Positions 2,158 to 20,725 are shown, numbered from the stretch's first letter. The stretch: DNA of 32,000 bases from an uncultured Nitrososphaerota archaeon (GCA_964480775.1 CAYZRF010000007.1:1-32000); one strand, 5' to 3'. Notes: a model not told the origin generated them from the letters alone. Numbers and translations are program-made.

Positions 2158-2237
2158 CTACATTCAAGATCCACAATAAATTAGTATAATTTTACTCATC
2201 CCTAGCTAGTAGACGAATGAAGTCAATAACTAATTAT

Positions 2238-3401: not shown

Positions 3402-3410
3402 GGTTCTCCC

Positions 3411-4475
3411 TCACGATAAAATGATTTGAACGATTTTCTTAGCCTCAACCCTTAATTCTGCTACTCGACGAGGACCCTTGGCCCTTAATTCTTTCTTTAG
3501 TTCTTCGTTAAACAGTACCCTTTTAATGGCTTTCGCTAAATTTTCTGGCCTAGGGTCACAGAGGATGCCAGCATCTCCTATTACTTCAGGTAAACTTCCA
3601 GCCTTTGATGCTATGACAGGTCTTCCGCAGGCCATTGCTTCTAGGGCAACGAAACAAAAAGTCTCATACAACGAGGGTATAACGACGACGTCGGATGCAG
3701 CATAGAATTCCGGCATCTTCTTATGGGGTAGGATTCCTAGATACATTACACGCTCAAGAATGTTCAACCTTTTGCTTAATTTCATAACCATCCTCAAAGA
3801 CCCTTGGTCCTTCCCCGCAATCAACAACTTCCCTGGAACTTCATTTATTACTAAAGCAAATGCCTTAACTAACCTATCTAAACCCTTTGTCGGGTTGAGT
3901 CTTCCTGCATAAGATATCAAGAACTCAGACTCCTTCACATTCAATTTCTCTCTGAATTTCTTACCCGAAATTGTGGGCGAGAAGCAATCCTCAACTAAAT
4001 AAGGAACTTTCACTACGGTCTCTGGCTTAAACCCATATTTCTTTATCGCGTTTCTTCTTTCAAATTCAGAAGGGGTCACAACAATGTCTATAGCTTTTTT
4101 GCTAGAGAGAATATTTGTTCTTACCCAAAGCGGAAAGAATATAGCTAAAGGCCCCCAAGGGAGGTAGCCCCTCCAAGGCCATAATCCATAATCATCAAAT
4201 ATGATTTTTCCAGTAAACCCTTTTTTTCTAGCCATTTTTCCTGCCAAAATGGCAGGAAGATTAGTGCATATCACAGCGTCAAATTCCATAAACCGTTTGG
4301 CTAAGTTCCTTATGGCAAAGTAGTCTAATCCTACTCTTAAGGGAATTTTTTCTATGTAGGAGCCTAAGGTCATAATGCCGTTTTTGACGCCCATCTCTTC
4401 TATTCTCATGTAGGTAATTTCAAACTCCTTGTCAATTATTCCAGGATAGTGGTTGATCTCTACCAGCAGCTTCAT
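3411..4475 (-). CDS. glycosyltransferase family 4-like (retaining GT-B, E-x7-E motif)
   Basis: 354-aa ORF with an ATG start. It carries '...SLYETFCFVALEAMACGRPVIASKAGSLPEVI...', the classical GT4/GT1 C-terminal E-x7-E nucleotide-sugar binding region. Confidence 0.85.
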   Translation of the reverse strand: MKLLVEINHYPGIIDKEFEITYMRIEEMGVKNGIMTLGSYIEKIPLRVGLDYFAIRNLAKRFMEFDAVICTNLPAILAGKMARKKGFTGKIIFDDYGLWPWRGYLPWGPLAIFFPLWVRTNILSSKKAIDIVVTPSEFERRNAIKKYGFKPETVVKVPYLVEDCFSPTISGKKFREKLNVKESEFLISYAGRLNPTKGLDRLVKAFALVINEVPGKLLIAGKDQGSLRMVMKLSKRLNILERVMYLGILPHKKMPEFYAASDVVVIPSLYETFCFVALEAMACGRPVIASKAGSLPEVIGDAGILCDPRPENLAKAIKRVLFNEELKKELRAKGPRRVAELRVEAKKIVQIILS

Positions 4476-4496
4476 TCGAGGTGATTAGTGTAGTTG

Positions 4497-4506
4497 TTAT
4501 AAAAAA
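4497..4506. promoter_or_regulatory. single TATA-like element (TTATAAAAAA) shared by two divergent GT genes
   Basis: The divergent intergenic region is only 52 bp (4476-4527). The AT-rich box is centred about 26-27 nt from both ATGs (4475 on the minus strand, 4528 on the plus strand), which is the archaeal TATA-to-start spacing for (near-)leaderless mRNAs. Confidence 0.4.
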
Positions 4507-4527
4507 GACATCCCTCTATATTGTTAG

Positions 4528-5547
4528 ATGGAGATCTCCTTCGTCAACCATACATTCGTCCCTGGATCTGGTCCTGATAAAGTAATTGCAGAGTTACGCA
4601 ACAGATTGAAAAAAAGACATAGTATCAGAATATTTGCGTGTAGATGGGAAGGAGAAGGAGTATTTCGCGCTCCTTGCCTTTATCCATTCAATTTCCCAGC
4701 TCCTTCGCCTAGCCTTAACCTAATCAAAGAACTAAATCGGTCTGATATTGTCAATATTCACTTCTTCCCTTTTTGCGCATATGCTCCATTTATCAAAAGC
4801 CCAGTTGTATTGACATTCCACGGATGGACAGATGTTCCAGAGGTAGAAACATCTCCTGCAATATGGTCTGCTAGGCAAATCGCAATGAAGATGCTTAAAC
4901 TACCAGCCAAAAGGTGCTCTCTTATAATTTCTATCAGTCAATATCTTTCTACTAAGATAAAAGACGTTTCTAAAACGATTTTGATTCCGAACGGAGTTGA
5001 TCTTTCCACATATAGACCAAGAGAAGATGAAGGCTACATTTTGTTTGTTGGCAGGTTGGTATGGTATAAGGGAGTGCACGAACTGATTCGAATATTGACA
5101 ACTATGAAAATGGACCTACATATAGTCGGGAAGGGTCCCGAGCTTCATAGACTGACCAAACTCACCAAGAGCTTAGGACTTAGTGAAAGAGTAAAATTCC
5201 TTGGAACTTTGTCAGAAGGGGATCTCGTTGAAGAATATAGGAATTGCTCCTTCTTAGCATCTGCATCAAAATGGGAAGGATTTGGCATGCCATTCTTAGA
5301 GGCAAACGCTTGTGCAAAGCCTGTAATTGGTTATAACAGAGCGGCCATTCCAGAGAGAATTGCGCACAGGTATAATGGCTTTCTTGCCAACAATTTCAAA
5401 GAGTTTTCTAAGTATATGCATCTTTTGGAGGAAGATGAATCTTTAAGAAAGGAAATGGGTGCTAATGGTAGAAAATTGGCAGAAAAGTATGATTGGAGCC
5501 TAATAACTGCAAAATATGAGAAAGCCTTCGAATCTGTATTGAGGTGA
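4528..5547 (+). CDS. glycosyltransferase family 4-like
   Basis: 339-aa ORF with an ATG start. It carries '...SKWEGFGMPFLEANACAKPVIGYNRAAIPERI...' (E-x7-E region) and 'ILFVGRLVWYKG' (GT-B linker motif). Confidence 0.85.
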   Translation: MEISFVNHTFVPGSGPDKVIAELRNRLKKRHSIRIFACRWEGEGVFRAPCLYPFNFPAPSPSLNLIKELNRSDIVNIHFFPFCAYAPFIKSPVVLTFHGWTDVPEVETSPAIWSARQIAMKMLKLPAKRCSLIISISQYLSTKIKDVSKTILIPNGVDLSTYRPREDEGYILFVGRLVWYKGVHELIRILTTMKMDLHIVGKGPELHRLTKLTKSLGLSERVKFLGTLSEGDLVEEYRNCSFLASASKWEGFGMPFLEANACAKPVIGYNRAAIPERIAHRYNGFLANNFKEFSKYMHLLEEDESLRKEMGANGRKLAEKYDWSLITAKYEKAFESVLR

Positions 5548-5551
5548 TCAA

Positions 5552-6718
5552 TTGGAGGTTCTTTTCATTGCAAATGGGATAACATCTGAATCTGGGACTC
5601 AAGTAATTGGAGGAGGAGAGGTTAGGTTTATAGAGATAGCGAAAAGATGGAAAAAGAAGGGAATAGATGTTCAAGTATTAACAACAGGGGCTGGAGTGGA
5701 ACTTTGCGAGAAACTCGGGTTAAAAGCGAGTTTTCACATTATTTCCACAGGAAATAGCACGTTTACGGATTACGCAATGACTTTCTTGAGATCTAGGTTT
5801 AAACTTCCTATCAAAGAGTTCAACGGAGTACTGTACTCAACAACCGAACACTTCTATGACTGCGCTCCAGCGTTTAGACTAAGAAAAAAATCTCTTCTCT
5901 GGGTTGCTGTCGTTCACTGGGTAGCTCCGTTTATCAGAAAAGAGGTTGGCATTATTTCAAGTTCAGTTTTCTACATAAATCAAAGATTGGGATTAAGATA
6001 CGTCAAAGCCAGAGCTGATCAAGTATATGCTGTTTCTAGGATAGTCGCTGAGAAGCTTAGGAACATGGGATTTGGTGATAGAGTAAGACCTGCAGAATGC
6101 GGTGTGAACTACGAGGAAATTAGAGAGATAGCAAGTAAGAATGTTGAGCAACTCTATGATGCCATATATATGAAGAGATTCTATCCTACAAAAGGGATAT
6201 TCGATGCCATTGAAATCTGGAAGTATGTCGTAGAGAAGAAAGAAGACGCAAAGCTAATGTTAGTAGGATTCTCTCCAAAATCCATCTTGAATAAAGTCAT
6301 CTCTATGATAAAAGAGAAAGAATTAGAGGATAATATTACTGTTAGAGGACCGGTTTACAACTTTAAACAAAAGATTCTGCTCTTAAGACAAAGCAAGATG
6401 CTGATCCTACCCAGCTATGAGGAAAACTGGGCAATAGTAGTGGGTGAAGCCTTAGCCTCTGGAATTCCCGTTGTAGCTTACGACCTTCCAGATATAAGGC
6501 CAATTTGGGGAGACAATGTTGTATGGTGCCCTCTAGGGGATAAGAAGGTCTTCTCTAAGGAAGTTTTGAAACTGATTGATAGAGAGGAGTTAAGGGAAAG
6601 CCTAGGGAGGAAAGGAATTGAATTAATGAAGAAATATAGCTGGAATTCAATAGCCGAAAAGGAGCTTCGCTTAATTCAAGATCATTTACGAGCAAGAGAC
6701 TCATATATCGATAGATAG
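5552..6718 (+). CDS. glycosyltransferase family 4-like
   Basis: 388-aa ORF. The TTG start at 5552 lies 4 nt after GAGGTGA, which overlaps the stop of the upstream gene and suggests translational coupling. It carries '...PSYEENWAIVVGEALASGIPVVAYDLPDIRPIW...'. Confidence 0.8.
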   Translation: MEVLFIANGITSESGTQVIGGGEVRFIEIAKRWKKKGIDVQVLTTGAGVELCEKLGLKASFHIISTGNSTFTDYAMTFLRSRFKLPIKEFNGVLYSTTEHFYDCAPAFRLRKKSLLWVAVVHWVAPFIRKEVGIISSSVFYINQRLGLRYVKARADQVYAVSRIVAEKLRNMGFGDRVRPAECGVNYEEIREIASKNVEQLYDAIYMKRFYPTKGIFDAIEIWKYVVEKKEDAKLMLVGFSPKSILNKVISMIKEKELEDNITVRGPVYNFKQKILLLRQSKMLILPSYEENWAIVVGEALASGIPVVAYDLPDIRPIWGDNVVWCPLGDKKVFSKEVLKLIDREELRESLGRKGIELMKKYSWNSIAEKELRLIQDHLRARDSYIDR

Positions 6719-7764
6719 ATCTCGGTTACTTTCTTAATATCTCTGAAAGCCCTAACGTAGTTCTGTGCTTCTATAGCCAATCTTCTAGCTAATTCTCTAT
6801 TTGTAAGAAGCCTAAGAATGGCTTCAGCAAACCCCTCTACATCTCCAGTTTCAATGTATATGGCCGAATTTGGTCCGATGCACGAGACGTTCCACTTCTG
6901 GTTTGCACTAACTATCGGCTTTCCGATACAAGCCGCTTCAAGCAGGCTATAGCCCGCATTACCCGGAGCTACAAAGACAGAAGCGCCCCTAATCAGGTTC
7001 AGAGCATCTTCTCTCGAAACTGATCCAACAAAATCCACAAAATCCAAGACTTCAAGACTTTTAGCCAGCTTCTTAAGGAGCTTAAGCTGAGGTCCTCCTC
7101 CAGCGACCACGAATTTAACTTTAACTTTTCGGAGAACAAGTGGAATTGCCCTTACAAAGCTTTCAGGCCCTTTTACGGGTAAAAGCCTCCCTAGATAAAG
7201 AACATAGCTTCCGTCGGGGTTCTCCTGGATTGAACTACACTTGATACCGTGAGGAATTGTAACTATCCCTTCTTGACGGAATTTACTTAATATTTCAAAA
7301 GCCTCCTCGGTGGGGGCTACGGCAACATCTGCAGACTTTATGACATAACCAAACAGGCTGCGGTACAAGAGAGGTCTCAAAACCTTTATGTACCATCTTT
7401 CTTGAAAGCTTCTACCGACATTATGGGCAGTTAGAACGAGAGGAATTTTCCCTTTTTTTGAGGCAAGGGCTGCTATTACTGAAGTCAAATATTCCTGACC
7501 ATGTACATGGATCACATCGTGCTCTTTGCTTAACTTAAAGAAGGAGCGGGGAGAGGGAAAAGGATTGGGAATGGGTGGAAGGGGTCTGAAAGAGGAGAAT
7601 GCATGGACTTCTATACCGTCAACCTCCTTTGGAACTTTACTACATGTATAAACAACAGGCTCATGTCCCATCTTTAGGAGTTGTCTACAGAGTTCGTAGA
7701 CATGAATTTCAACTCCAGCATTAACTTCAGGTACGAAATATGGAGTGACGTGTATTATCCTCAT
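6682..7764 (-). CDS. glycosyltransferase family 4-like
   Basis: 360-aa ORF. Its ATG overlaps the stop of the upstream 859-aa gene (ATGA at 7761-7764). It carries 'YVLYLGRLLPVKGP' and '...GNAGYSLLEAACIGKPIVSANQ...'. Its 3' end overlaps the convergent gene 5552..6718 by 37 nt. Confidence 0.8.
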   Translation of the reverse strand: MRIIHVTPYFVPEVNAGVEIHVYELCRQLLKMGHEPVVYTCSKVPKEVDGIEVHAFSSFRPLPPIPNPFPSPRSFFKLSKEHDVIHVHGQEYLTSVIAALASKKGKIPLVLTAHNVGRSFQERWYIKVLRPLLYRSLFGYVIKSADVAVAPTEEAFEILSKFRQEGIVTIPHGIKCSSIQENPDGSYVLYLGRLLPVKGPESFVRAIPLVLRKVKVKFVVAGGGPQLKLLKKLAKSLEVLDFVDFVGSVSREDALNLIRGASVFVAPGNAGYSLLEAACIGKPIVSANQKWNVSCIGPNSAIYIETGDVEGFAEAILRLLTNRELARRLAIEAQNYVRAFRDIKKVTEIYLSIYESLARK

Positions 7765-10340
7765 TCTTTAACCCTTCTCCTTCTAAACTCGATGTAGATG
7801 GCTGCTGGAAGAGAAATTATGAGACTCATTATTGTGAGCCCTTCGCTTAGAGCCACGTAGCCCAGCTTCTCAAATCTTACCTCGATATCAAAGCTCCCAG
7901 AGGTTTCTGGAAAGATCAACATCATGCCAGGTCCTGCCTTAAATATCTTTAGCCTCTTGTCTCCGAGATAGGCCGACCATCCCTTGTAATAGCTTATCTT
8001 TACGAAGAGAGCATCATCAGCTTCCGCTCCATTTACATGGATTGTCAGCCTTTCAGGCATGAGATAATCAAAGTTCAAAGTAGCACTCGACTTTGGACCC
8101 TTTTCGGAAACTGCTTTGATCATCTCTTCTATAAGAAGAGACTCTTCACGATTCAAGTGATATACGGCATGGTAAGGCAGATTCAAACCAGTCCATAAGA
8201 CCTTTCCATCACCATATTCCATGACTGCGGCTAAGACCGCTTTGTCCTCATCGTAAATAAGAGGAATAGCACCCCCGCGCAGGCTTTCATTTATCGTGTA
8301 TGATATGCCGTACTCTCCTTTGGTGAACAATGAAGTGTAAACAGGTCTCGATGTCCAGTTTCCCACTAAACTTAAGTTGAAATTGCTGTTTCTCGTCCAA
8401 CAATCAGTTATTGGGAAAGGTTCTTCAAGGCCTGTTGAAGCGCCTCCGTGAGGTAGATCTCCCGTATCAAGTATCACCGAGCCCCCGCGTCTCACGTATT
8501 CCCTAAGCTTATCATAGTAATTGTTCTCGTTCAGATACCTTATTCCAAAAAGGTAAAGAACATCAAACTTCGATAGGTTTTCGAGAGATTGGACATCAAC
8601 GAACTCTCCGCCATAAACTAGCAACACATCTTCGGCTCCAGTCGGAGAGATCGCAGCGAAGGTGCGCTGATAATCTGCAAAACTACCGAAGACCATGACT
8701 TTTATCGTATCAGATCCTATTAGTTCAACTAAGGAGGAATTGAAGTTCTCTACTTCATAGAGAAAGAGGAAATCAGAGACCCCTACAAGGCCCTCTCCAA
8801 ACCTAGGATTGTAAAAGAACCTAACATTGTACTGATTTGAAAAATATCTCAAATACGATGGGTCCGACAGAAATAAGAGATAATACCAGAAGGTATAAGC
8901 AAAATCGTTAATCATTTCAACTTGCAGGCTTCCTCCGCTCAAACCTACGTCTGTATAAAGATCAAGCCTCCAAATCCACTCTATCATATCTGTAGCAAGT
9001 CTTTCTCCTTTTCTGGCGTTGTTCCTCAACCATAACATATCTGGCGGGATTTCGGTCTCTATTAGTTTGTGGTGAGGAGCAATATTCACAAAAACCTCTC
9101 TTATCGCAAAGAAGGATGCTGAGACAAGTATAAGCACTAAAAGAATTGCGAATTTCTTCTTATAGGAGGATAGTACCTTCTGGGTGAGATAACCTGCAAT
9201 TAGAGCTGAAAACAAGGAAAAATACGGGGAAAACCTATTTGGCAGAGGAAAAGGGACTTTTAAAATCGGGAAAAGGAGCACAATGAAACTAATTATGAAA
9301 CCCACAGCAGAAAGCTTAGAATAGTCAGCTTTTTTGTCTTTGACAAGAATTGGCAACCCGATAAACGCCAGAGCTATCTGACCTGTGCCTGGAGACCACA
9401 AGTTCCTCTCATAATTAATTCCAAATATCCTCTTTAGGTGATCAAGGATTAACTCGCTCTTGGGTGGGGCGCCAGCTGGCAACAGCCCTATCTGCCAACC
9501 ACGAGTAACTTGAGAATAGCCTCCCTCGATAAAGAAGGGGATCCACCACCAGGCCGATAGCCCAAAACCGACAAGAATTATGCCCGCAAGAGCCTTTGGT
9601 AGGCGTAGAGTGTACTCAGGAAGTTTTGCTCCGGGCTCAATTTTAATGAAGAGCTCTGGTTTCATTATAACCATCAAAACTGAGAAAATTAAGAGAAGAA
9701 GAACAGATATGAAGGCGTCGTGAAAATGGGACAGGGATGTTGCAGCGAAAAGAGCTCCGCCAACTAACATATCTACAGTAGACTGTGTTTCAATAGCTCT
9801 AAGGAGAAAGTAGAAAGTTCCTATGAATAGAAAAACCCCGGTTATCATAGGAATTGCTCCTACATTCCAGAAAGAGTATAGATTGTATGAAAAAGTGAAG
9901 AAAATTGAAGACGCGAGAGCACCGGTTTTTCCTAGCCCAAGCCTTCTTGATAGGAGATAAAGGAAGGCAGATCCCATACCAAAAAAGAGATAAGTGTAAA
10001 CCCTGTAAGCTTGAAAAACATGGATCCTTAGGATCCATCCTATAAAGGCCATAGCTATGTGTGAGAAGGGGGGATAAAACCTTAGGGCAGGACAACCGAA
10101 AAACCAACCATCATTCCATTGAGGTAGCCCAGGGAGGTACCTCATTATCTTGTTGACGAGTGACATATGCATAAGGGGCGATCCTTCCCAAGAGGCCCAT
10201 TTCGGAATTCCTGGAAATACTATGCTAGCGGTGATCGCCGAGACAAGAAATGAAATTATTACTAGAATAGCATCCAAAGGTACCTTTCTTGTCCTCATTT
10301 TACCACCCTCTCGCTTAGAGCCTTTCCTAACTTCAACCAT
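7761..10340 (-). CDS. large polytopic membrane protein, GT-C-like (PTPS-related/DUF2298-like) putative glycosyltransferase, with a soluble C-terminal domain and terminal TM anchor
   Basis: 859-aa ORF. Its ATG at 10340 overlaps the end of the upstream GT2 gene by 8 nt. The N-terminal ~430 aa contain many hydrophobic helices. The first loop reads '...WNDGWFFGCPALRFYPPFSH...', as I recall for the '6-pyruvoyl-tetrahydropterin-synthase-related' membrane family. The C-terminal ~400 aa are soluble, and the protein ends with the TM segment LTIMSLIISLPAAIYIEF followed by RRRRVKE. It sits inside a GT operon. Confidence 0.55.
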   Translation of the reverse strand: MVEVRKGSKREGGKMRTRKVPLDAILVIISFLVSAITASIVFPGIPKWASWEGSPLMHMSLVNKIMRYLPGLPQWNDGWFFGCPALRFYPPFSHIAMAFIGWILRIHVFQAYRVYTYLFFGMGSAFLYLLSRRLGLGKTGALASSIFFTFSYNLYSFWNVGAIPMITGVFLFIGTFYFLLRAIETQSTVDMLVGGALFAATSLSHFHDAFISVLLLLIFSVLMVIMKPELFIKIEPGAKLPEYTLRLPKALAGIILVGFGLSAWWWIPFFIEGGYSQVTRGWQIGLLPAGAPPKSELILDHLKRIFGINYERNLWSPGTGQIALAFIGLPILVKDKKADYSKLSAVGFIISFIVLLFPILKVPFPLPNRFSPYFSLFSALIAGYLTQKVLSSYKKKFAILLVLILVSASFFAIREVFVNIAPHHKLIETEIPPDMLWLRNNARKGERLATDMIEWIWRLDLYTDVGLSGGSLQVEMINDFAYTFWYYLLFLSDPSYLRYFSNQYNVRFFYNPRFGEGLVGVSDFLFLYEVENFNSSLVELIGSDTIKVMVFGSFADYQRTFAAISPTGAEDVLLVYGGEFVDVQSLENLSKFDVLYLFGIRYLNENNYYDKLREYVRRGGSVILDTGDLPHGGASTGLEEPFPITDCWTRNSNFNLSLVGNWTSRPVYTSLFTKGEYGISYTINESLRGGAIPLIYDEDKAVLAAVMEYGDGKVLWTGLNLPYHAVYHLNREESLLIEEMIKAVSEKGPKSSATLNFDYLMPERLTIHVNGAEADDALFVKISYYKGWSAYLGDKRLKIFKAGPGMMLIFPETSGSFDIEVRFEKLGYVALSEGLTIMSLIISLPAAIYIEFRRRRVKE

Positions 10341-11013
10341 ATAAACGCCACTTTAGCAGGGAAAAAAACATCTTAAACGGATCTCTCCAAACGCTGACTC
10401 TAGAAGAACCCCTATAAACGTATTTTACTGGAACATAAGAAATGGAAAATCCCTTCTTAGATGCCTTGACTAGAATCTCAGCATCTATCTCAAATCCATC
10501 TGATTTAATGGGCCAGATCTCTTTAATTACCTCTCGTCTAATGGCTTTCAGACCCGATTGCGGATCCAAGAAATCTCTTCCAAATAGAACTCTTAGAACA
10601 AGTCTGTATAGTGAACTCAGGATTTTTCTAAGCACAGATCTCTTAACATCCACTCTTTGGGCTACCACCAAATCAGCCTCTCCTCTCAAGATCTTTTCAA
10701 CCATCTCAGGTATTTTCTCGGGGGGATACTCCAAGTCCGCATCAAGTACAACTATTATTTCCCCCTTGGCCTTTTCCAAACATCTCTTTATGCCAAAGCC
10801 CTTCCCTTTCCTCTCTTTAAAGCTTAACGAATGAACAGCGTAATGTTCTCTCGCAAGTCGTTCTATGATCTGAGGGGTTCTATCAGAACTTCCTTCCTGC
10901 TCGAGAAATATTTCGAAGTCATATCCTTTTGAGGAAAGTACCTCATAAACTCGTTGAAAGCACTTTTCTACCGTTTTTTCCTCGTTGTAAGCGGGAATTA
11001 TCACAGAGATCAT
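10333..11013 (-). CDS. GT2 family glycosyltransferase, dolichyl-phosphate hexose synthase-like (DPM1/AglJ-AglD class)
   Basis: The ORF track begins at TTG 11070. I prefer ATG 11013, which gives MISVIIPAYNEEKTVEKC..., the canonical GT2 N-terminus. It also carries 'IIVVLDADLEYPPEKI' (DxD). It is small and GT-A-like, as in Dol-P-sugar synthases. Confidence 0.8.
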   Translation of the reverse strand: MISVIIPAYNEEKTVEKCFQRVYEVLSSKGYDFEIFLEQEGSSDRTPQIIERLAREHYAVHSLSFKERKGKGFGIKRCLEKAKGEIIVVLDADLEYPPEKIPEMVEKILRGEADLVVAQRVDVKRSVLRKILSSLYRLVLRVLFGRDFLDPQSGLKAIRREVIKEIWPIKSDGFEIDAEILVKASKKGFSISYVPVKYVYRGSSRVSVWRDPFKMFFSLLKWRLYG

Positions 11014-11015
11014 GA

Positions 11016-11914
11016 TCAACGCCTCTTTTGATTCACGTATAATAACAAGTGGATTGCCACGATGGAACAAGGAAAAGGGACATTTCGGAGATAAAAGTTC
11101 TACTAGTGGTGTACGGACCCTTCGTATCTTTGACGAAGAATCCCTGGCTGGTTCTTACCATTATGTGCACATCTTGGTCTTGAAATTCTATGTCGTCTAG
11201 TTTTGCTCCAATCACAATGCTTGTTCCTGAAACCTGAACGTAAGTGGTTGAGACCACTTGCCAAGAGGAACCGGTCCAGCTATACAGGTTCCCATCAGAA
11301 CTCAATTTGTAGTCATATCCGTAGCTTCCTATGCTTGGACCTCCAGCTTTGGTGTCTAAGTAAACATCGTAGAGATATAAAATAGTGCTTGGTGCAGCCA
11401 CCTCAGCCAGCCTGAAGAAAACGTGAGTTCCATTGTTAGTCAAGTAAAGTGCCTTGTCATCCACAGCGGCTGGTGAAGCATCGTCTATCGGATCAGATCC
11501 GAACTGATACCAGTCGGATGGCCATGCTAGGGAGTTATCGATATTCGTTGATATAATCACAGAGTCTTGAACTCCGTAGGTTGAGTTAACAGCCGTTAGC
11601 GTAACTTGAACATTACCAGATATAGAAGAAGGCAAGATAAGCTTGACAATAAGCGTAGCAATCCCTCCAGAAGCTACGCTTACATCTGTATAGTAATTAT
11701 CCCAGCTAACTCCATTGGAGCTATATGCGACGTGGACATCTCCCTCGTTAAATCCGTCTGTGTCCTGCCATAGGTCAACTTCGATGGTTTTAGTTGAAGA
11801 TACATTGAAGCTAAAACTCATCTCAGAGGGGCCCGTGTTGATGATATATACGTTATATGAAATGTTTGAGCCAGCTGAGCAGGAAGAGGATTGATCAGGT
11901 CTAAAAAAGTCTGC
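11016..11914 (-). repeat. copy A of a ~0.9-kb duplicated gene segment encoding the shared C-terminal module of the two surface proteins
   Basis: Long identical runs are shared with copy B. One 41-nt run, gaaacctgaacgtaagtggttgagaccacttgccaagagga, occurs at 11229-11269 and 12996-13036. 'cgtctatcggatcagatccgaactgataccagtc' and 'acaggttcccatcagaactcaa' are also present in both copies. Confidence 0.85.
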
Positions 11915-12503
11915 TGTGTAATTCACCTCTACCCAAACCTGGGTACATCTTGCCTCGGTAGTAGACGCCCCTCTTAGGTCAACACCAGCCTCCAGAGAAT
12001 CGATGTAATTCCAACTCCAAGGCTCTCCCGTACTGGGATTTGTGGTCCAAGTTCTGTAGTATGTAGTCCAGGAACTCGACAGAGTCCTACGATCTTCATT
12101 AATGTTAAAGATGCTGGGAAAATCAGTTGAACCGACCCTCAAAACTGGTCTAGTAAATACAAGCAATCCAGTCCCACTTTTCCGACATCTAACATAAACA
12201 GTTACTGAATTAATGATTCCAGATCCTTGAGAATGATTTTGGAGACTATATGTATCCCGTCCATAGGGATAAGGAGTAGTCGTGTAATAAACGTATGTGG
12301 AATCCTCATCAGGCATAGTTTCATCAACGCACTCCCAGTTTTCATTGCCGCTTGGATAAGGATTTAGAAGGTACCAACTTCCATTTCCGTCTGGCCTCAA
12401 AATCTCAGTATCTGGCTTCCCTATTATTTCTATTCTTAAATGACAAGTTGTTTCGATAAAAATTAGAAAAAGCAGAATAAATGTGAGAAAAAAATCGTCT
12501 CAC
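11016..12503 (-). pseudogene. secreted surface-protein paralog, disrupted by two 1-nt frameshifts (or a recoded gene); the intact central ORF is 11033..12400 (455 codons)
   Basis: GTG at 12503 lies 7 nt after AAGGAGG and encodes MRR. A T7 run follows (A7 on the plus strand, 12488-12494). With T6 the frame would continue MRRFFLTFILLFLIFIETTCHLRIEIIGKPDTEILRPDGNGSWY..., a signal peptide joined to the 455-codon ORF. At the 3' end, around 11062/11063, one base is missing relative to the paralog. The restored frame reads ...LFLVP(I)VAIHLLLYVNQKRR* and stops at 11016, aligning with PIATILLLVYISKKRSK* of the 1025-aa protein. Confidence 0.7.
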
Positions 12504-12778
12504 CCGGGACCCTCCTTATAGGATGTTTGCCAGATCCGCTCATGGTTTGAGCATAAGCACCCAGACCTTTCACGAAACTGACATAAATTCCTTATTGCCC
12601 CTGAATATTATTTTTTGTATGTAAGCGGGTAATAACTATTTCTATTTTATGATATCTTTGTTTTCTCAGATGTAATTTAAACGTTTTTCGAGGGCTTATA
12701 GATCCTCTTGGTAAAGGAAATTAAAGTCAAAGCTTCAAAATCCTGAGACGTAAACTTATTCCTCAAGTCTCGCTTTTT

Positions 12779-13705
12779 CTATTTGGATCTCTTTTTACTT
12801 ATGTACACAAGCAACAGAATGGTAGCGATTGGGACGATAAATAGAGGCATCTCAAATATGAACGTTCTCGTTGTGGTATATGGGCCTTTTTCATCCTTAA
12901 GGACTGTTCCTTCATAGGTTCTCACAAGTATGTGCACGTCTTGATCCTCAAATACCATGTCACTGAGGTTAGCTCCAATCACAATGCTTGTTCCCGAAAC
13001 CTGAACGTAAGTGGTTGAGACCACTTGCCAAGAGGAGCCAGTCCAGTTGTACAGGTTCCCATCAGAACTCAACTTGTAGTTATAAGTGTAATTTCCTATG
13101 TTTTGACCTCCCGTTCTTGTGTCCATGTATACTTCATATCGATAAGAGACAGTACTTGGCGTTGCCGCCTCAGCCAGCCTGAAGAAAACGTGGGTTCCAT
13201 TGTTAACTGTGTAAAACGACTTGTCATCCACGGCTGGAGGAGAAACGTCGTCTATCGGATCAGATCCGAACTGATACCAGTCAGATGGCCATGCCAGGTA
13301 ATTATCGATTATCGTTGATATAAGAACAAAGTCGTGAGCACCAGAACCCGAACCAGTTGCTGTCAGATTCACTTGGACCGTGCCTGATGCTGATGAAGGT
13401 AGGATTATCGTTACAATAAGCGTTGCGCTAGCACCAGAGGAAACACTAATGTCCGGTTCACCATTTGAGTTGCTGTCGCTGTAAACAGAATCCCATACCC
13501 CATCTCCATCTGCGTCATATGCTATGTGCGTGTCTCCGCCATCCATCCAATCTGTATCAACCCAGATGTCTACCCCAACTGACAGATTAGAGCTTCCTTG
13601 TAGGTCAAATACATCGTCTGAGGATCCAGTATTGATTAAGTAAACGTTATACGATACATTTGAGCCCGCGGCTGCTGAGAATGTCTGATTGGGCTTGAAC
13701 TCCAC
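12779..13705 (-). repeat. copy B of the duplicated C-terminal module segment
   Basis: See copy A. At the protein level the module runs from GVEFKPNQTFSAAAGSNVSYNVYLINTG to the C-terminus. It aligns with ADFFRPDQSSSCSAGSNISYNVYIINTG to the end of the 455-codon ORF. Confidence 0.85.
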
Positions 13706-15863: not shown

Positions 15864-16481
15864 CTACTCCCCCGGCTTTCTTTTTGCTTCTGGATTTGAA
15901 TACCGAAGGTAAAGTGAAAAGAACCCTTTCTTAGGAACCATAGGTGCTTTAGAAGTAATTACCACCTTAGAGCCCTCTATACTCACATTGAACGCGTCTT
16001 CAGGAGAAATTTTGAGTTCTTTTACCTCTGCTCCCTTTGGCAAGACAAATGTTATGGACAGATTCGTTGAAACACCTGTTAAACCTATTTTTTCCAATAA
16101 AAGGGCGATAGTTGAGGCCATATCCTCTTGGACGACGAAATCAATCCCGTCGCAAGGAGGAGAATGTCCAGTTAGCTTCAAGGATACTGATGCCTCTCCG
16201 CCTTTGAAGCTAAAGCTGACAAATTCACTTGATACCTTCAACCTCTCTGACAAAAGAGATTCGGGTTTCTTGGAGCTTCCTAGCATTTTACTAAATGCCA
16301 TCGCAGAGTCTCCAGATAATTTGATGTCTACGAAGGCTTTGGTAGACTTTTGGCTAAAAACAAATTTCAGATCGACCGAGATGGATGATGCCAATGGCTG
16401 TTGAGCATTCATCCTTACCGAGATCCCGGCGACTATCGAAAGTAACGCAATTATTATGAGAGCAGAGGCAGTTAACTTCAT
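15864..16481 (-). CDS. secreted or membrane-anchored protein of unknown function, encoded between the archaeosortase-like gene and its putative cargo
   Basis: The ORF track starts at TTG 16499. I prefer ATG 16481, which gives MKLTASALIIIALLSIVAGISV..., a signal or anchor helix, because a TATA-like box sits about 27 nt upstream. The stop lies 7 nt before the start of the 1025-aa gene. I recognise no family. Confidence 0.6.
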   Translation of the reverse strand: MKLTASALIIIALLSIVAGISVRMNAQQPLASSISVDLKFVFSQKSTKAFVDIKLSGDSAMAFSKMLGSSKKPESLLSERLKVSSEFVSFSFKGGEASVSLKLTGHSPPCDGIDFVVQEDMASTIALLLEKIGLTGVSTNLSITFVLPKGAEVKELKISPEDAFNVSIEGSKVVITSKAPMVPKKGFFSLYLRYSNPEAKRKPGE

Positions 16482-16504
16482 GATAAGTAGGTAGTCCAAA
16501 ATGA

Positions 16505-16636: not shown

Positions 16637-17401
16637 TCAAGAAGCCTCCGTCAGTTGCCCAATCGCAATCCCAGCAAAAGTTGCTAAGTAGATGAAATCT
16701 ATGAAAGTCCCAGCTAAGTAGTGGAGGAGCAGAAATGCTAGGGCTCCTACGTGGTAGAGGGTTGCTATTGTTACTGCAAGCCTCAGAATGTTCCAAGCAA
16801 CGGAAAAGAGCATAGTAGCACCCAACCAGAATAGTTTTGTGTGGAGAGGCCCTTTAAGACCAAAGACTCCTATAGAAAACGCAATCGAGATCAAAATGAA
16901 CATTAAGACCCCTGAACAAGACCAATCAACGGTTATCCAAGTTAATCTGTGGGGAATACCCCAAAATGCATTGTAGAGCAGTGCCGTTCCTGCCAACGGA
17001 GCTATTATGAACCAGAGGATCTTTATGGGGAAGGGGATTTTCTTCAGTTTCCAGATTATGAACGAGGCTATAGCTAGGTTTATCAGAATAAATACGACGG
17101 TAGATGGATCGGGCCTCTTATAAGGAACTGGAAGCTCAAAAGTCGGACCACCAGCCATGTATTTTAGTGGGAAGAGTTCAAAAAGCGATCTCGCCCTTCC
17201 CATATCGAACAGTCTATATGGAACATGGGCTATGTCTAGGAGCTTTGCTATGCTCCTTGCCTGAAACCACCAATATCCTAGGAAATTTGTACCTACTAAG
17301 TAAGTAGCAAGAGTCGAAAGAAGGAGACCTACTAAAAAATGAGCCTTTTGAAAACCAGGAAACCAGAAGGCTCTTTTTAGCTCCTCGCCTATACTCTCCA
17401 A
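16637..17401 (-). CDS. exosortase/archaeosortase-family integral membrane protein (putative transpeptidase)
   Basis: 254-aa multi-TM ORF. The TTG start lies 7 nt after GGGTGA and overlaps the upstream gene by 13 nt. The C-terminal half reads ...ITVDWSCSGVLMFILIS...(45 residues from the Cys to the Arg)...VAWNILRLAVTIATLYH...LLLHYLAGTFIDF. This reproduces the conserved Cys (xCSGx), Arg (NxxR) and His order and spacing that I remember from EpsH/XrtA ('vaeaCSGlr ... aNglR ... H..yG') and ArtA. Confidence 0.65.
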   Translation of the reverse strand: MESIGEELKRAFWFPGFQKAHFLVGLLLSTLATYLVGTNFLGYWWFQARSIAKLLDIAHVPYRLFDMGRARSLFELFPLKYMAGGPTFELPVPYKRPDPSTVVFILINLAIASFIIWKLKKIPFPIKILWFIIAPLAGTALLYNAFWGIPHRLTWITVDWSCSGVLMFILISIAFSIGVFGLKGPLHTKLFWLGATMLFSVAWNILRLAVTIATLYHVGALAFLLLHYLAGTFIDFIYLATFAGIAIGQLTEAS

Positions 17402-18066
17402 GCATCTGTCACCCTAAGTCTCTCTGGCAGCACTTTTTTGATAGAATCAACCACCTTGACTCCTTCTACTGCATAAACCTTGGTCTTTCCTAAGGCTCCA
17501 GGTTCGATATAAACCGTCTTCCCAGATACTAAGCCACCACCTTCCTCGCCCATTCCTATTACAACACCCTTAGCAACATATATTGATCCTCTAGCATCAA
17601 CGCAGTTGCCTATAATTGTCCCTTCTCCAATAGCAAGCTCTCCTTCTACAACTATGGACTTTCCAATTCCGTTCTTAGGTCCTATAACTGCATCTCCTTT
17701 CACATGAATTCCACCTTTTACTGCGACTTCTTCCTTGGAGAAGAAATTTCCTAAGACTATGAGGTTGTAAGGAATGAATTCCTTGGCTGGTACTGTGACA
17801 TCTCCCTTAATTCTGATGGTTTCAGCACCTTGAAGCCACACTTTCTGGGATTTTAAGTAAGATGGCTTCTTGTTTCTTTCTAGAGCTTTAATAGCCTCTT
17901 CAATGAGCCCCAACTCCTCCGCCCTATGTAGAATCAGCAGCTCTGGGATGTTTATCCCGTATTTAAGAAAGATCTCCTCTCTTAACATCTCAATTGTTAG
18001 CTCGCCAAATTTCTGCTTAATCAGGTTGTCAAGGGCTGAAGACCACTCTATCTCCTTTGTCATCAT
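17389..18066 (-). CDS. beta-helix repeat protein, bactofilin-like (polymer-forming cytoskeletal/DUF583-like), with an N-terminal helical domain
   Basis: The ORF track starts at TTG 18096. I prefer ATG 18066 (MMTKEIEW...), which lies 8 nt after GAGGGA. The C-terminal ~120 aa read 'VKGGIHVKGDAVIGPKNGIGKSIVVEGELAIGEGTIIGNCVDARGSIYVAKGVVIGMGEEGGGLVSGKTVYIEPGALGKTKVYAVEGVKVV'. This shows the periodic hydrophobic/Gly pattern of a bactofilin-type beta-helix. Confidence 0.5.
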   Translation of the reverse strand: MMTKEIEWSSALDNLIKQKFGELTIEMLREEIFLKYGINIPELLILHRAEELGLIEEAIKALERNKKPSYLKSQKVWLQGAETIRIKGDVTVPAKEFIPYNLIVLGNFFSKEEVAVKGGIHVKGDAVIGPKNGIGKSIVVEGELAIGEGTIIGNCVDARGSIYVAKGVVIGMGEEGGGLVSGKTVYIEPGALGKTKVYAVEGVKVVDSIKKVLPERLRVTDAWRV

Positions 18067-18076
18067 TTTACATCCC

Positions 18077-18733
18077 TCACCCTTCAAACATTCCAATAAG
18101 CTTTGAGGAATTGATTACCTCAATTCCATGTTTGGCGCTTGCCTCTCCTATCTCGCAACCTTCTGCTGCCTCAATGGTCTTTTCCGAGGTAACTTTTCTT
18201 ACGCTACAACCCTTTGAAATGACTATCTTGCCTTTGGCGTCGATCCACTCATTGACTTTATTGTTACTATCTAGAAAGATGTCTGAGTCGGAAGCAAGGA
18301 AACTTATCTCGCAATTCTGTCCCACCTTGATGTTTCCAGTTGAATAGGCTCCTCCAGTAATCTTGCAATTTCTACCAATAGAAAGATCTCCTATCACAAT
18401 AAGGAGTTCTTTCATTTCGAAGTTGTCAGGAATGTGCGTGTCTCCATAAATTAACCTAAAGTAGCCAAGATCTGAGTGAAACTTAGGTTTTTGAGTTAAA
18501 AACGTCTCTGGCGACATCCCTCCGCCATCTCTCGAGATGAAGCCTAGTTCTACGGCTGGTTCAACCCTTTCTCTTAGAAGCAGAGCTTCCTCGTTGTCAC
18601 AAATGCATCTGTCTAGGTTTATGTAAAGAGGCCCTGGATCAGCAGCTCTGTTGTACTCAATAAATCCAAGGACAAAAGGTACCGAAGCTATAGCACCGAA
18701 AAGGGCCAGTAACAAAATGTATCCGAGAATCAT
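18077..18733 (-). CDS. membrane-anchored beta-helix repeat protein (N-terminal TM plus a bactofilin/hexapeptide-like C-terminal domain)
   Basis: 218-aa ORF. Its ATG overlaps the GT2 stop (ATGA at 18730-18733). The N-terminal TM is MILGYILLLALFGAIASVPFVLGFI. The C-terminal region reads 'IGDLSIGRNCKITGGAYSTGNIKVGQNCEISFLASDSDIFLDSNNKVNEWIDAKGKIVISKGCSVRKV..EAAEGCEIGEASAKHGIEV', with about 6-residue periodicity. Confidence 0.5.
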   Translation of the reverse strand: MILGYILLLALFGAIASVPFVLGFIEYNRAADPGPLYINLDRCICDNEEALLLRERVEPAVELGFISRDGGGMSPETFLTQKPKFHSDLGYFRLIYGDTHIPDNFEMKELLIVIGDLSIGRNCKITGGAYSTGNIKVGQNCEISFLASDSDIFLDSNNKVNEWIDAKGKIVISKGCSVRKVTSEKTIEAAEGCEIGEASAKHGIEVINSSKLIGMFEG

Positions 18734-20115
18734 TCTTTTCTCACCTTCTTTCCTCCACCATTTAGGTACCTTAGTCCATTTCCGTTGTGCTGGGTCTTGT
18801 GCCAGTTATTCTTGTTATTGTTATGGTTGTTCTTGTTATTGTTCAGGTTGTTGTAATAGAGCAGGCCATTTCCAGCTTTTTTCGTTTTATGCCACTTCTT
18901 TGATTGATGCTTTCTCCTATGCAACAGAATTGCTTCGAAGAATGCAACAGTGCAGACCCAAGCATTGTGTACCACGAGTATAAGCATCGCTGGAAGAAGC
19001 CATGAGGCCCTTTTCCTACCGTCCAAGTAAGCACTGGCTACCACTTCGTTGAACATGGCGAAGTTGCCTAGGTTGGTGTAAGAGATGCTCATTGGTATTG
19101 CTATGAAGAATGAGGACCATGGCTGAGGAACAAATAGGTAAGACACTACCCCTAAAACCCAGCCCACAAAAACGAAAACTGGAAGCACAAAGGTTCCTAA
19201 GAGAAGAACACCACTAACCTTCTGCCAAAACGTAAGGAACGGGGATTTTATAACGGAGGTAAGGTGCTCAAACAAACACTGATCGTGGCCTATCGCCCAC
19301 CTTCTTAGCTGCTTACTTCTTTGCTTCCACGTAGGAACGACTTCCTCATAGGCTTCTGCTGCATTTATGTATACAAGCTTCCAACCCCCTAGGAAAATTC
19401 TGAAAGATAAATCAGTATCCTCAGCTAATTTTGTCTCGTCCCATCCTCCCAACCGCTTAAGGATGTCCCTCCTGAAGCCTCCAACCGTTCCACCATAAAG
19501 AGTTATCAGGTCTAAGTTGTACCTAGCCTGCTGGTCAACTTGATATCCAGCAGACCTTTCTAGGTCCAGAAGCCTAGTTGTTAGGCTATCGGGGGAGTTT
19601 GCTGGTACCACTCTCCCCATAACGGCACCAACTTCGGGATCATAGAACGGAGCAACAAGCCTCTTGATACAGTCCTTTGGTGGGAGGTAGTCTGCGTCAA
19701 ATGTAATTATGATATCGTTGTGTGCAAATCCTAAGGCTACGTTCATTGCTTCTGGCTTTCCATTTCCTCCGCTCTCAGTTCTATGCACCGCCTTTATGAA
19801 CGGATACTTCTCTGCAAACTCGTCAATTATTTCCCCGGTCCTGTCCTCTGAGCAGTCATTTAGTGCAATAACTTCGTACATCCCATTTTCTTTTGGATAA
19901 TCCATCTCTACAAGCCTTTGAAGAATGTGAGGAGCAACTGCCTCCTCATTATGCATCGGCACTATTATGCTGACGCTTGGTAGGTAATGCCCAGCAAGCT
20001 CCTGGTAAGCTCTTCTCTGCTTACCATAGAGCCTGTTCCAAGTGAATTTATAGTGCCTAATGGCGTAAGCCGTCATGATTGTAAAAAGAATCATGAAAGC
20101 AATTTCTAATAGCAT
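18730..20115 (-). CDS. processive family-2 glycosyltransferase (cellulose/chitin/PNAG/hyaluronan-synthase class) with an Asn/His/Lys-rich repeat tail
   Basis: The longest ORF begins at TTG 20172. I prefer ATG 20115 (MLLEIAFMILFTIMTAYAI...), an N-terminal TM preceded by GGGTG. Motifs are SVSIIVPMHNEE, NDCSEDRT (D), ITFDADY (DxD), GGTVGGFRR, AEDTDL (TED-like) and QRSKQLRRW (QxxRW), followed by C-terminal TM helices. Confidence 0.85.
   Translation of the reverse strand: MLLEIAFMILFTIMTAYAIRHYKFTWNRLYGKQRRAYQELAGHYLPSVSIIVPMHNEEAVAPHILQRLVEMDYPKENGMYEVIALNDCSEDRTGEIIDEFAEKYPFIKAVHRTESGGNGKPEAMNVALGFAHNDIIITFDADYLPPKDCIKRLVAPFYDPEVGAVMGRVVPANSPDSLTTRLLDLERSAGYQVDQQARYNLDLITLYGGTVGGFRRDILKRLGGWDETKLAEDTDLSFRIFLGGWKLVYINAAEAYEEVVPTWKQRSKQLRRWAIGHDQCLFEHLTSVIKSPFLTFWQKVSGVLLLGTFVLPVFVFVGWVLGVVSYLFVPQPWSSFFIAIPMSISYTNLGNFAMFNEVVASAYLDGRKRASWLLPAMLILVVHNAWVCTVAFFEAILLHRRKHQSKKWHKTKKAGNGLLYYNNLNNNKNNHNNNKNNWHKTQHNGNGLRYLNGGGKKVRKE
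18733..18894 (-). repeat. in-frame tandem repeat (two ~30-codon units) and Asn-codon low-complexity tract in the GT2 tail
   Basis: The protein reads WHKTKKAGNGLLYYNNLNNNKNNHNNNKNN then WHKTQHNGNGLRYLNGGGKKVRKE. The two TGG codons are at 18894-18892 and 18804-18802. The plus-strand DNA shows a repeated 'ttcttgttattgtt'. Confidence 0.8.
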
Positions 20116-20272
20116 GCTACCGCACCCTGTGATACCGACACCAATGACTTGGCTATCTTCGAATTTTCTCAACTAAGACTTAAAAAATGTGCTGTTGGCC
20201 CGTAAATTTTGCAAGTACAGCAATCAACCGATTAAATCGCGAAAACACTTTGTAGGCGTAAGATCTAAACTG

Positions 20273-20377: not shown

Positions 20378-20725
20378 TCATGTTCCAAGCATTTCCATTA
20401 TCTGGGGCAGGTATGCCAAGAATTGGGCCAATGCCGCAGAAATTGCACCAATGGCTATGCCTCTAGTCCAGTCGACGTCAAACCATCTTTTTATCAAACC
20501 TATCCCTGCTATAGCGAAGATTACAAGCCAAATCCAAAACTCCGGTATTATAAGCCTGAGAATAAAGTGTACGATCGAGATTATTATGGTCAATGTCAGG
20601 ATGGAAAAAATTCCTTTCTCCTTCTCTGATGGGAGTATTAGCTTCTGGGAGATCCATATCACAACAGTATACACGATGAAGTTAGCAAGTGTGCTTTGGC
20701 TTACCTCTCTAATCGGGATTACCAT
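20378..20725 (-). CDS. small integral membrane protein (3-4 TM), unknown function
   Basis: 115-aa ORF with an ATG start. It is almost entirely hydrophobic helices (FIVYTVVIWISQKLIL, IFSILTLTIIISIVHFILRLII, FWIWLVIFAIAGIGLI, IAIGAISAALAQFLAYL). Confidence 0.6.
   Translation of the reverse strand: MVIPIREVSQSTLANFIVYTVVIWISQKLILPSEKEKGIFSILTLTIIISIVHFILRLIIPEFWIWLVIFAIAGIGLIKRWFDVDWTRGIAIGAISAALAQFLAYLPQIMEMLGT

Follow-up and report, generated by a model that had tools for sequence, protein, structure and literature searches.

Split bactofilin-like beta-helix proteins as candidate partners of a clade of processive GT2 synthases in archaea and bacteria

In a 32,000-nucleotide (nt) stretch of DNA from an uncultured Nitrososphaerota archaeon (GCA_964480775.1 CAYZRF010000007.1:1-32000; hereafter, the window), two adjacent open reading frames (ORFs), denoted ORF2 and ORF1, directly follow the gene for a processive synthase of glycosyltransferase family 2 (GT2) and encode proteins with apparent beta-helical C-terminal halves. 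ORF2 and ORF1 are the two halves of one ancestral protein, given that single-chain, fused forms occur in other lineages, and the beta-helix family to which they belong is the invariable neighbor of one GT2 clade, in both bacteria and archaea, in the cases examined. On balance, this protein is probably a dedicated partner of that synthase clade, namely, a single-pass, N-terminally anchored chain with cytoplasmic, tandem beta-helices of the bactofilin superfamily, with ORF2 and ORF1 as its halves. An initial annotation of the window, made from the sequence alone, described two beta-helix (bactofilin-like) proteins, one of them membrane-anchored, translationally coupled to the synthase; the split of one protein, the conservation peak in the transmembrane and juxtamembrane segment, and the span of the family across bacteria and archaea were not part of it. 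The principal genes and domains are the following (positions are those of the window).

18730..20172, minus strand: processive GT2 synthase, 480 amino acids (aa), PgaC/IcaA-like architecture, QLRRW motif
18077..18733, minus strand: ORF2, 218 aa, ATG start; membrane-anchored N-terminal half of the split beta-helix protein
18662..18718, minus strand: ORF2 transmembrane helix, residues 6-24, from hydropathy and flanking charges (helix 2-27 in the AlphaFold2 (AF2) model)
18608..18661, minus strand: ORF2 juxtamembrane motif IEYNRAADPGPLYINLDR, family consensus E-x3-P-x-D-x2-P-L-x-I ... RYF
18113..18484, minus strand: ORF2 predicted beta-helix, residues 84-207, ~6-7 turns of 18 residues, AF2 pLDDT (predicted score of the local distance difference test) 80-93
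17389..18066, minus strand: ORF1, 225 aa; soluble C-terminal half of the split beta-helix protein
17851..18045, minus strand: ORF1 helical N-domain, residues 8-72, AF2 helices 10-19, 25-36, 42-51, 55-63 and 69-72
17452..17820, minus strand: ORF1 predicted beta-helix, residues 83-205, which contain the conserved GGGL turn, from AF2 and lag-18 periodicity

The stop codon of the synthase gene and the start codon of ORF2 overlap in an ATGA at 18730-18733, and the upstream enzyme shows highly significant similarity to Pfam families of GT2 (Glyco_trans_2_3, 2.9e-27; Glycos_transf_2, 1.1e-26); together with the QLRRW motif, this bears out the coupling to a processive GT2 that had been proposed initially. 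Against TIGR03937 (PgaC_IcaA), the enzyme reaches 130.6 bits, with model positions 8-401 covered, under the cutoff of 422. The GT2s encoded in the related loci form a single clade, share 42-55% identity with that of the window across their full length and all contain QxxRW. In every locus reached via the beta-helix proteins, a set that covers the split, fused, minimal, high-GC and bacterial ~340-aa forms, the beta-helix gene(s) directly follow a GT2 of 420-480 aa. Starting from the synthase instead, a search of metagenomes that used the GT2 alignment retrieved 80 loci (41-85% identity), 12 of which are on contigs that end too early downstream to be counted; in the 68 loci with enough downstream sequence, a beta-helix-family ORF is located immediately downstream, on the same strand, in 68/68. 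Thus, the co-occurrence across genomes that the initial annotation had put forward as a check was found for each of these GT2 orthologs. On plasmids, tblastn detected no match to a bacterial partner.

Some of the synthases show peculiarities of their own. For the window GT2, the TTG at 20172 is probably too far upstream, and the true start is perhaps an ATG located ~19 codons further along; the C-terminal tail of this protein (18730-18900) is an Asn-rich, low-complexity segment (...NGLLYYNNLNNNKNNHNNNKNNWHKTQHNGNG...) that aligns with the tail of the ortholog from locus L001. In a 1.3-Mb bacterial contig (L019), the GT2 (3512-6004) carries an N-terminal extension of ~300 residues if the 741-aa gene is taken as called, or ~390 residues in the longest ORF, without a match to the profile of the exosortase-like proteins discussed below.

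The origin of the two ORFs from one protein is shown by the comparison of the split and fused forms. In the window, 10 nt separate the stop codon of ORF2 from the start of ORF1, which is preceded by a GGTGAGGG stretch; alignments of orthologs favor the ATG at 18066 as the start of ORF1, rather than the TTG at 18096 with which the mechanically called ORF (17389-18096) begins. Close homologs, besides the window proteins, number nine for ORF1 (65-90% identity) and six for ORF2 (57-76% identity); those with a source name come from a Korarchaeota or Thermoproteota archaeon, and the gene order is always the same. A scan of genome contigs with the close ORF1 family identified five Korarchaeia-type loci. 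A much wider search of 1.84 billion representative sequences with a profile from the ORF1 alignment yielded 274 matches at E<=1e-3, many of them proteins of 385-515 aa with two matched stretches. In these fused chains (400-515 aa), the N-terminal half matches the full-length ORF2 profile (independent E-value (iE) 1e-18 to 1e-30), including the transmembrane helix and the juxtamembrane motif, here in the form E-Y/L-x2-P-x-D-x-G-P-L-x-I-D, and the C-terminal half matches the full-length ORF1 profile, including the helical domain (iE 1e-42 to 1e-71). The alignment identifies the helical N-domain of ORF1 with the linker domain between the two beta-helices of the fused relatives, such as P0017 and P0019-P0033, in which the first beta-helix, a helical domain of ~65-70 aa and the second beta-helix follow one another in a single chain. 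A weak homology also links the beta-helix halves of ORF1 and ORF2 (BLASTP E=4e-5; profile cross-matches 1e-9 to 1e-12). Apart from the split and fused forms, the family includes a minimal form of ~230-250 aa, with the transmembrane helix, the motif and one ORF1-type beta-helix (P0034, P0238), a bacterial form of ~340 aa, with the transmembrane helix, the motif and two beta-helices without the helical linker, and longer forms with extra C-terminal domains.

Among the longer forms, the partners in L056, L060-L063, L065, L066, L075, L079, L090 and L097 (565-585 aa) contain a C-terminal leucine-rich repeat domain of the BspA type (LRR_5, up to 4e-47), and several of these loci are contigs from human-gut metagenomes; gut bacteria therefore possess the module as well, extended by a domain for protein interaction. 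The partners in L027, L029, L030, L036 and L037 (398-700 aa) start with a transmembrane helix and a single domain, which in the L027 partner matches Pfam Bactofilin end to end; a long charged extension comes next, and at least two of these proteins also have hydrophobic segments near the C-terminus. One metagenome-assembled genome from Guaymas (B8_G17) encompasses two copies of the array of ORF2, ORF1 and the exosortase-like gene (L011, L014), and two other archaeal loci harbor an extra, separate bactofilin-like paralog a few kb from the module (L007, 11417-12454, and L008, 13522-14712, minus strand).

The transmembrane helix and the juxtamembrane motif, not the beta-helix, are the best conserved part of the superfamily. 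In an alignment of 34 sequences across the family forms (A3), E34 and D40 are invariant and F28, P43 and F57 are near-invariant, all within this segment, whereas the sole near-invariant residue of the beta-helix, in A3 as well as in alignment A6, is one Gly of the ORF1 GGGL turn (G177/G178 of ORF1 are invariant in alignment A4). We propose that the juxtamembrane motif is a docking element. In ORF2, residues 6-24 have a mean Kyte-Doolittle hydropathy of 2.47 and represent the N-terminal transmembrane helix that had been recognized in one of the two proteins; the region of the motif is modeled with low pLDDT in the ORF2 monomer, as part of a low-confidence linker of ~50 residues after this helix. 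Among 101 mid-sized relatives, 80 possess an N-terminal transmembrane helix and 70 contain the motif; Lys or Arg residues follow the transmembrane helix in 70 of the 80. In ORF2 itself, such residues are found after the helix and none before it, which predicts a cytoplasmic location for the C-terminal part. ORF1 contains neither a signal peptide nor a transmembrane helix and yet is homologous to the C-terminal half of the fused proteins, which places the module on the cytoplasmic side. By the positive-inside rule and homology, we infer that the beta-helical module resides in the cytoplasm, beside the catalytic domain of the GT2.

Several lines of evidence bear on the type of beta-helix, the weakest point of the interpretation. 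Self-similarity under BLOSUM scoring is detectable in the C-terminal halves of both ORFs at lag 18 (z=4.6) and lag 6 (z~3), and at neither lag in the ORF1 N-domain. The short-period beta-helix repeats reported initially for these halves were thus recovered: both quoted peptides were found, and the periodicity and the AF2 models agree. Structure prediction, suggested then as a check, yields beta-solenoids for both ORFs. For ORF2, the five models are concordant and include a terminal helix (209-216); in the best ORF1 model, the pLDDT of the solenoid is 84-95, and the helices within residues 8-72 (pLDDT ~60) match the separate helical N-domain of the earlier description. According to the prediction, ORF2 is a right-handed three-sided beta-helix of about six turns. 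With Foldseek, this model superposes on the solid-state nuclear magnetic resonance structure of BacA (2n3d) with a template modeling (TM) score of 0.71 and a root-mean-square deviation (rmsd) of 2.7 Å over 105 columns (probability 0.80), whereas all left-handed beta-helix (LbH) structures among the matches listed compare with the AF2 models at rmsd >10 Å, TM score <=0.2 and probability <=0.06. The handedness of ORF1 is provisionally taken to be the same because its beta-helix is homologous to that of ORF2. Profile comparisons of the relatives tend in the same direction: at E<=0.01, Bactofilin matches 80 of the 101 relatives, LbH_EIF2B 37 and Hexapep 27, and among 50 GT2-downstream partners chosen by position only, Bactofilin is found in 10/50 and Hexapep in 2/50 at E<=3e-6, approximately the gathering level. 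Some relatives exceed the gathering score of the Bactofilin family, PF04519 (27.9 bits), among them the L027 partner (31.7 bits, residues 78-175, model positions 3-95 of 98) and P0027 (30.5 bits).

Given these observations, we consider a right-handed, bactofilin-like fold likely. The affiliation with bactofilins holds at the level of the superfamily and the predicted fold, not at that of the Pfam family; hence, of the designation 'bactofilin-like' in the initial annotation, the part that concerns the fold and superfamily stands, through the BacA superposition and the PF04519 matches of the relatives, and membership of ORF1 and ORF2 in PF04519 does not. The outcome of the comparison of PF04519 and Hexapep profiles, also proposed at that stage, is similarly divided, with no PF04519 match and Hexapep scores far under the cutoff for the two ORFs and a preference for Bactofilin among the relatives. 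Neither Pfam nor NCBIfam includes a model for this beta-helix family, the members of which are mostly annotated as hypothetical.

A number of results weigh against the bactofilin assignment and the partnership with the synthase. Neither ORF1 nor ORF2 matches PF04519 at E<=1. Against the PDB, every Foldseek E-value is >=0.25 for both models; the superposition of ORF2 on BacA is the only one that makes geometric sense, and for ORF1 there is no good superposition, the top match being bactofilin 6ria (E=0.25, rmsd 9.9 Å). Profile searches of the PDB sequences with ORF1, ORF2 and the family found no bactofilin chain and returned only weak LbH matches (ORF1 5.7e-5, ORF2 0.012, wider family 2.6e-7). 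One of the five ORF1 models is confident, and the alignments supplied to AF2 were shallow, with 7-10 sequences. With regard to the role, adjacency is compatible with a scaffold, an activator or a regulator alike and alone cannot separate these; interaction with the synthase, polymerization and an effect on the synthase are all predictions; and the extra domains in some of the partners (LRR_5, long C-terminal extensions) imply that the function may vary.

The synthase gene and the two ORFs are part of a single minus-strand gene array that spans ~7.7-20.7 kb of the window. The other genes of this array and its surroundings are the following.

20378-20725, minus strand: 115-aa hydrophobic protein, ~200 nt upstream of the GT2
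16637..17401, minus strand: exosortase/archaeosortase-like polytopic membrane protein, 254 aa (TIGR04178)
15864..16499, minus strand: 211-aa membrane protein, with homologs at the same position in L004, L011 and L012
12779..15856, minus strand: 1025-aa secreted protein with an N-terminal signal; probable substrate of the exosortase-like enzyme, from synteny and a C-terminal motif shared with its homologs
11033-12400, minus strand: 455-aa paralog of the 1025-aa secreted protein, downstream of the gene for the latter
10333..11070, minus strand: small GT2, dolichyl-/polyprenyl-phosphate sugar transferase-like (Glycos_transf_2, 8.3e-32), extended cassette
7761..10340, minus strand: 859-aa PTPS_related polytopic membrane protein (PF10131, 2.5e-24), extended cassette
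916-7764: five genes for glycosyltransferases of the GT4 type, beyond the PTPS_related gene

Given the GT4 block beyond the PTPS_related gene, the entire 20-kb region is a surface-glycan locus. The gene next to ORF1, which overlaps the ORF1 stop codon by 13 nt and is separated by a 137-nt gap from the gene for the 211-aa membrane protein, had been described as sortase-like; its 254-aa product matches TIGR04178 (32.3 bits against a cutoff of 23) and hence is an exosortase/archaeosortase homolog. It is under the cutoff of every named subtype (XrtG, 16.1 bits against 102.75; ArtF, 15.7 against 150). The likely catalytic Cys (DWSCSG), Arg (R207 of WNxLR) and His (LLHYLAG) are retained in six archaeal homologs (alignment A7). 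In each of the archaeal loci, and also in the high-GC locus L017, the exosortase-like gene lies beside the GT2/beta-helix pair, and a match to the A7 hidden Markov model lies directly upstream of the GT2 in 38/72 metagenomic loci (15/38 at E<1e-10). In the L017 homolog (145-939), the Cys is gone (SFQRGG instead of DWSCSG), as is the His, and judging by this replacement the protein may have been retained in a non-catalytic form, for a structural role. For the upstream genes in the bacterial loci L009 and L018, we do not claim exosortase homology (16 bits, high bias, iterative inclusion).

The last 28 residues of the 1025-aa secreted protein (12782-12865) form a tripartite signal that consists of FEMPLFIVP, a hydrophobic stretch and KKRSK. 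The same C-terminal signal, with the common form '...GPY..SRT.ISEM(P/S)LF.VP' followed by ~15 hydrophobic residues and KKR/RKR, is present in homologs from L001 (11620-13176), L004 (12197-15295), L007 (9390-10466), L008 (8690-9739) and L012 (11779-14868), and these proteins therefore are plausible substrates. No NCBIfam sorting-domain model matched the 1025-aa protein, which, by its C-terminal sequence, is the probable substrate of the exosortase-like enzyme; the shared signal looks like the cognate sorting signal of an unnamed exosortase/archaeosortase subtype. The 455-aa paralog is devoid of the hydrophobic and basic parts of the signal and ends with ...SEMSLFLVPSWQSTCYYT, and its hydrophobic leader precedes the TTG at 12400 in the same reading frame (in the 12400-12779 gap), with no start codon ahead of it; this paralog is probably a decaying copy.

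The remaining genes of the array recur to different extents. The 211-aa membrane protein has no Pfam or NCBIfam match and is conserved in the Korarchaeia-type cassette. Matches of the small GT2 to AglJ, PgfS and DPhHxTase-like models are under the cutoffs, and its synteny is conserved; together with the PTPS_related protein, it recurs in related loci, and PTPS_related homologs adjoin the module in L001, L004, L008, L012 and L016. The 115-aa hydrophobic protein could be assigned to no family; homologs of 115-121 aa are encoded at the equivalent site in every Korarchaeia-type locus of sufficient extent (L001-L005, L011-L013), and this protein may be a further component of the cassette.

Bactofilins are membrane-associated scaffolds for peptidoglycan enzymes and cell-shape factors. 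The resemblance of the present family to bactofilins (PF04519/DUF583; BacA/BacB of Caulobacter, CcmA, TtBac) includes a beta-helix of ~110-125 residues with 6-7 turns and 18-residue periodicity, membrane association and linkage to an envelope-synthesis enzyme, as in the case of BacA and PbpC. The differences are a true transmembrane helix in place of the short N-terminal membrane-targeting peptide, the lack of disordered tails, the tandem or split two-domain layout, the conserved juxtamembrane motif, and the client, which here is a processive GT2 from the same operon rather than a peptidoglycan enzyme; nucleotide-independent polymerization into non-polar filaments is known for bactofilins and putative here. 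The archaeal halofilin HalA of Haloferax volcanii has two bactofilin-like beta-helices with a helical element between them (PMC11459167), the same helix-linker-helix layout as in the fused relatives of ORF2 and ORF1. The likeness is one of layout: HalA is a soluble cell-shape factor with a short hairpin linker of ~40 aa, whereas the family described here has a linker of ~65-70 aa, is membrane-anchored and is tied to a GT2, and in the window the two domains are encoded by separate genes instead of a single chain. Transmembrane-anchored bactofilins, for example, CcmA of Proteus mirabilis, account for ~3% of the bacterial bactofilins and have been proposed to polymerize (PMC12448750). They share with ORF2 the N-terminal anchor and, after it, a bactofilin domain in the cytoplasm (ORF1 itself lacks any membrane element), but contain a single canonical PF04519 domain, are mainly proteobacterial and have no reported GT2 or exosortase context.

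Among the systems that resemble the locus by gene context, PgaD/IcaD are likewise encoded directly downstream of, and overlapping, a PgaC/IcaA-like GT2 gene and are membrane-anchored, presumed non-enzymatic partners; however, they have no beta-helix and no sequence or fold similarity to the proteins analyzed here. As annotated, the XrtG gene set comprises a protein with a C-terminal signal, XrtG and two glycosyltransferases, with no beta-helix component (PMC12854382). XrtG/Firmicu-CTERM and other exosortase/archaeosortase systems (TIGR03110, TIGR03111, TIGR04178) likewise combine an exosortase-family protein, a GT2 synthase, a PTPS_related protein and a substrate with a tripartite signal, but the window protein fails the cutoffs of XrtG, ArtF and the other subtypes, and the C-terminal motif, ISEMPLF.VP, is different. 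In architecture and genomic role, the family also differs from the described bactofilins, halofilins and transmembrane-anchored CcmA-type proteins.

Under the proposed mechanism, the transmembrane helix of ORF2 and the E-x3-P-x-D-x2-P-L motif would attach, at the membrane's inner face, to either the synthase or the exosortase-like protein, and ORF1 would bind ORF2 non-covalently, rebuilding the helix1-linker-helix2 arrangement of the fused proteins, as in the halofilin HalA. The beta-helical module would serve the synthase as an accessory or scaffold subunit without enzymatic activity, a scaffold function being what we infer; it may activate or stabilize the enzyme, as PgaD/IcaD do for PgaC/IcaA, and may oligomerize end to end, clustering the synthase with the exosortase-like machinery that would process the 'ISEMP...'-CTERM surface protein. 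A more far-reaching scenario, in which a membrane-anchored tandem bactofilin polymer on the cytoplasmic face orders the GT2 synthase and the exosortase-like enzyme in arrays, the module being ancient, previously unrecognized and an obligate, co-inherited subunit of the synthase instead of a general cell-shape factor, seems to us rather unlikely. If true, it would represent a prokaryotic counterpart of the cytoskeleton-guided cellulose-synthase complexes, with a range from Korarchaeia to human-gut bacteria.

The location of the genes and the frame overlap are reminiscent of pgaC-pgaD and icaA-icaD, and with a PgaC/IcaA-like GT2 in place, the two ORFs could encode a non-polymerizing regulatory or activating subunit, an analog of PgaD/IcaD, in which the transmembrane helix and the motif complete or gate the GT2 channel and the beta-helices serve as a rigid platform or sensor in the cytoplasm. 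This possibility, which we consider less likely, overlaps with the partnership that we favor, polymerization being the sole difference; the focus of conservation on the transmembrane helix and the motif, the existence of minimal ~230-aa forms with one beta-helix, and the flanking helical elements that could cap the beta-helix ends (ORF2 helix 209-216, the ORF1 N-domain) are all compatible with it. It is made doubtful by the lack of PgaD or IcaD similarity in the Pfam and NCBIfam searches, by the affinity to bactofilins, which polymerize by default, and by the persistence of 6-7 turns, mostly as tandem helices, across vast evolutionary distances, which suggests that the helix itself is functional. 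An enzymatic role, as left-handed hexapeptide acyltransferases that modify the polymer, was the alternative offered by the initial annotation. Such enzymes would add O- or N-linked acyl groups, on the cytoplasmic side, to the sugar donor or to the growing polymer. NodL acylates the products of NodC, and LbH acyltransferases (LpxA, LpxD, GlmU, PglD, NodL) share with the present family the strict 6/18-residue 'xxIGxx' periodicity and weak profile matches: PF25084 (0.0049 and 0.017) and PF00132 (0.11 and 0.15) in Pfam, Vat(D), NeuD, LpxA and LpxD at 14-23 bits in NCBIfam, and, among the PDB sequences, LbH proteins throughout (A3 against 3mqg, 2.6e-7; A1 against 4r36, 5.7e-5). These scores are far under the respective cutoffs (Hexapep, 12.7 and 12.3 bits against 27; Vat(D), 22.6 against 400; LpxA/LpxD, 15-16 against 231-242). 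The beta-helix columns of A3 and A6 include no invariant His, Asp or Ser, and H121 of ORF1 is kept among close relatives only, being replaced with Lys, Gln or Ser in the others. The LbH structures fail to superpose, in contrast to BacA, and the relatives match Bactofilin in preference to Hexapep (80 against 27; at the strict level, 10 against 2). To our knowledge, the known LbH acyltransferases have no transmembrane anchor, no tandem domains and no conserved juxtamembrane motif. With the low scores, the anchor, the tandem architecture and no conserved catalytic residue, acyltransferase activity is improbable whatever the handedness of the helix.

The bactofilin-like fold and the membrane anchoring would also fit general cell-shape proteins, similar to BacA, CcmA or halofilins, that reside in a surface-glycan locus by chance, and bactofilins and halofilins indeed control cell shape (PMC11459167, PMC12448750). 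However, adjacency to one GT2 clade in all 68 informative loci, with overlapping or abutting frames in bacteria and archaea alike, is unexpected for an independent cytoskeletal gene; furthermore, the canonical N-terminal membrane-targeting peptide is missing, and the AF2 models show no disordered terminal tails, so we assign very little probability to this explanation. Equally hard to accept is an extracytoplasmic module that binds or processes the emerging polysaccharide. Right-handed beta-helices often bind glycans, the module then being comparable to the epimerases and lyases with this fold in synthase-dependent systems, and the BspA-type LRR domains of some partners belong to a class that is often found at the cell surface. 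A bactofilin domain exposed outside the cell is on record as well, in HalB (PMC11459167). Nevertheless, ORF1 is homologous to the C-terminal half of the fused proteins and yet lacks a signal peptide and a transmembrane helix, and a Lys/Arg cluster follows the transmembrane helix in most of the relatives that have one, so this scenario is highly improbable. An extracellular location, which the LRR_5 fusions had brought into consideration, was rejected given that ORF1 has no export signal.

Processive GT2 synthases, such as those for cellulose, poly-N-acetylglucosamine, hyaluronan and chitin, need diverse accessory subunits. In the literature that we searched, nothing ties bactofilins to processive GT2 synthases or to exosortases; the nearest item is a review in which the cortical belt of Gluconacetobacter is called bactofilin-like in appearance. 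The split, fused and minimal architectures of the family are natural constructs for testing which of its parts are needed. If the proposed partnership is true, the family would be a new class of synthase accessory subunit and the synthase a new kind of client for bactofilin biology, and a conserved component would be added to the poorly understood systems that combine exosortase-like proteins with GT2 (XrtG-like systems).

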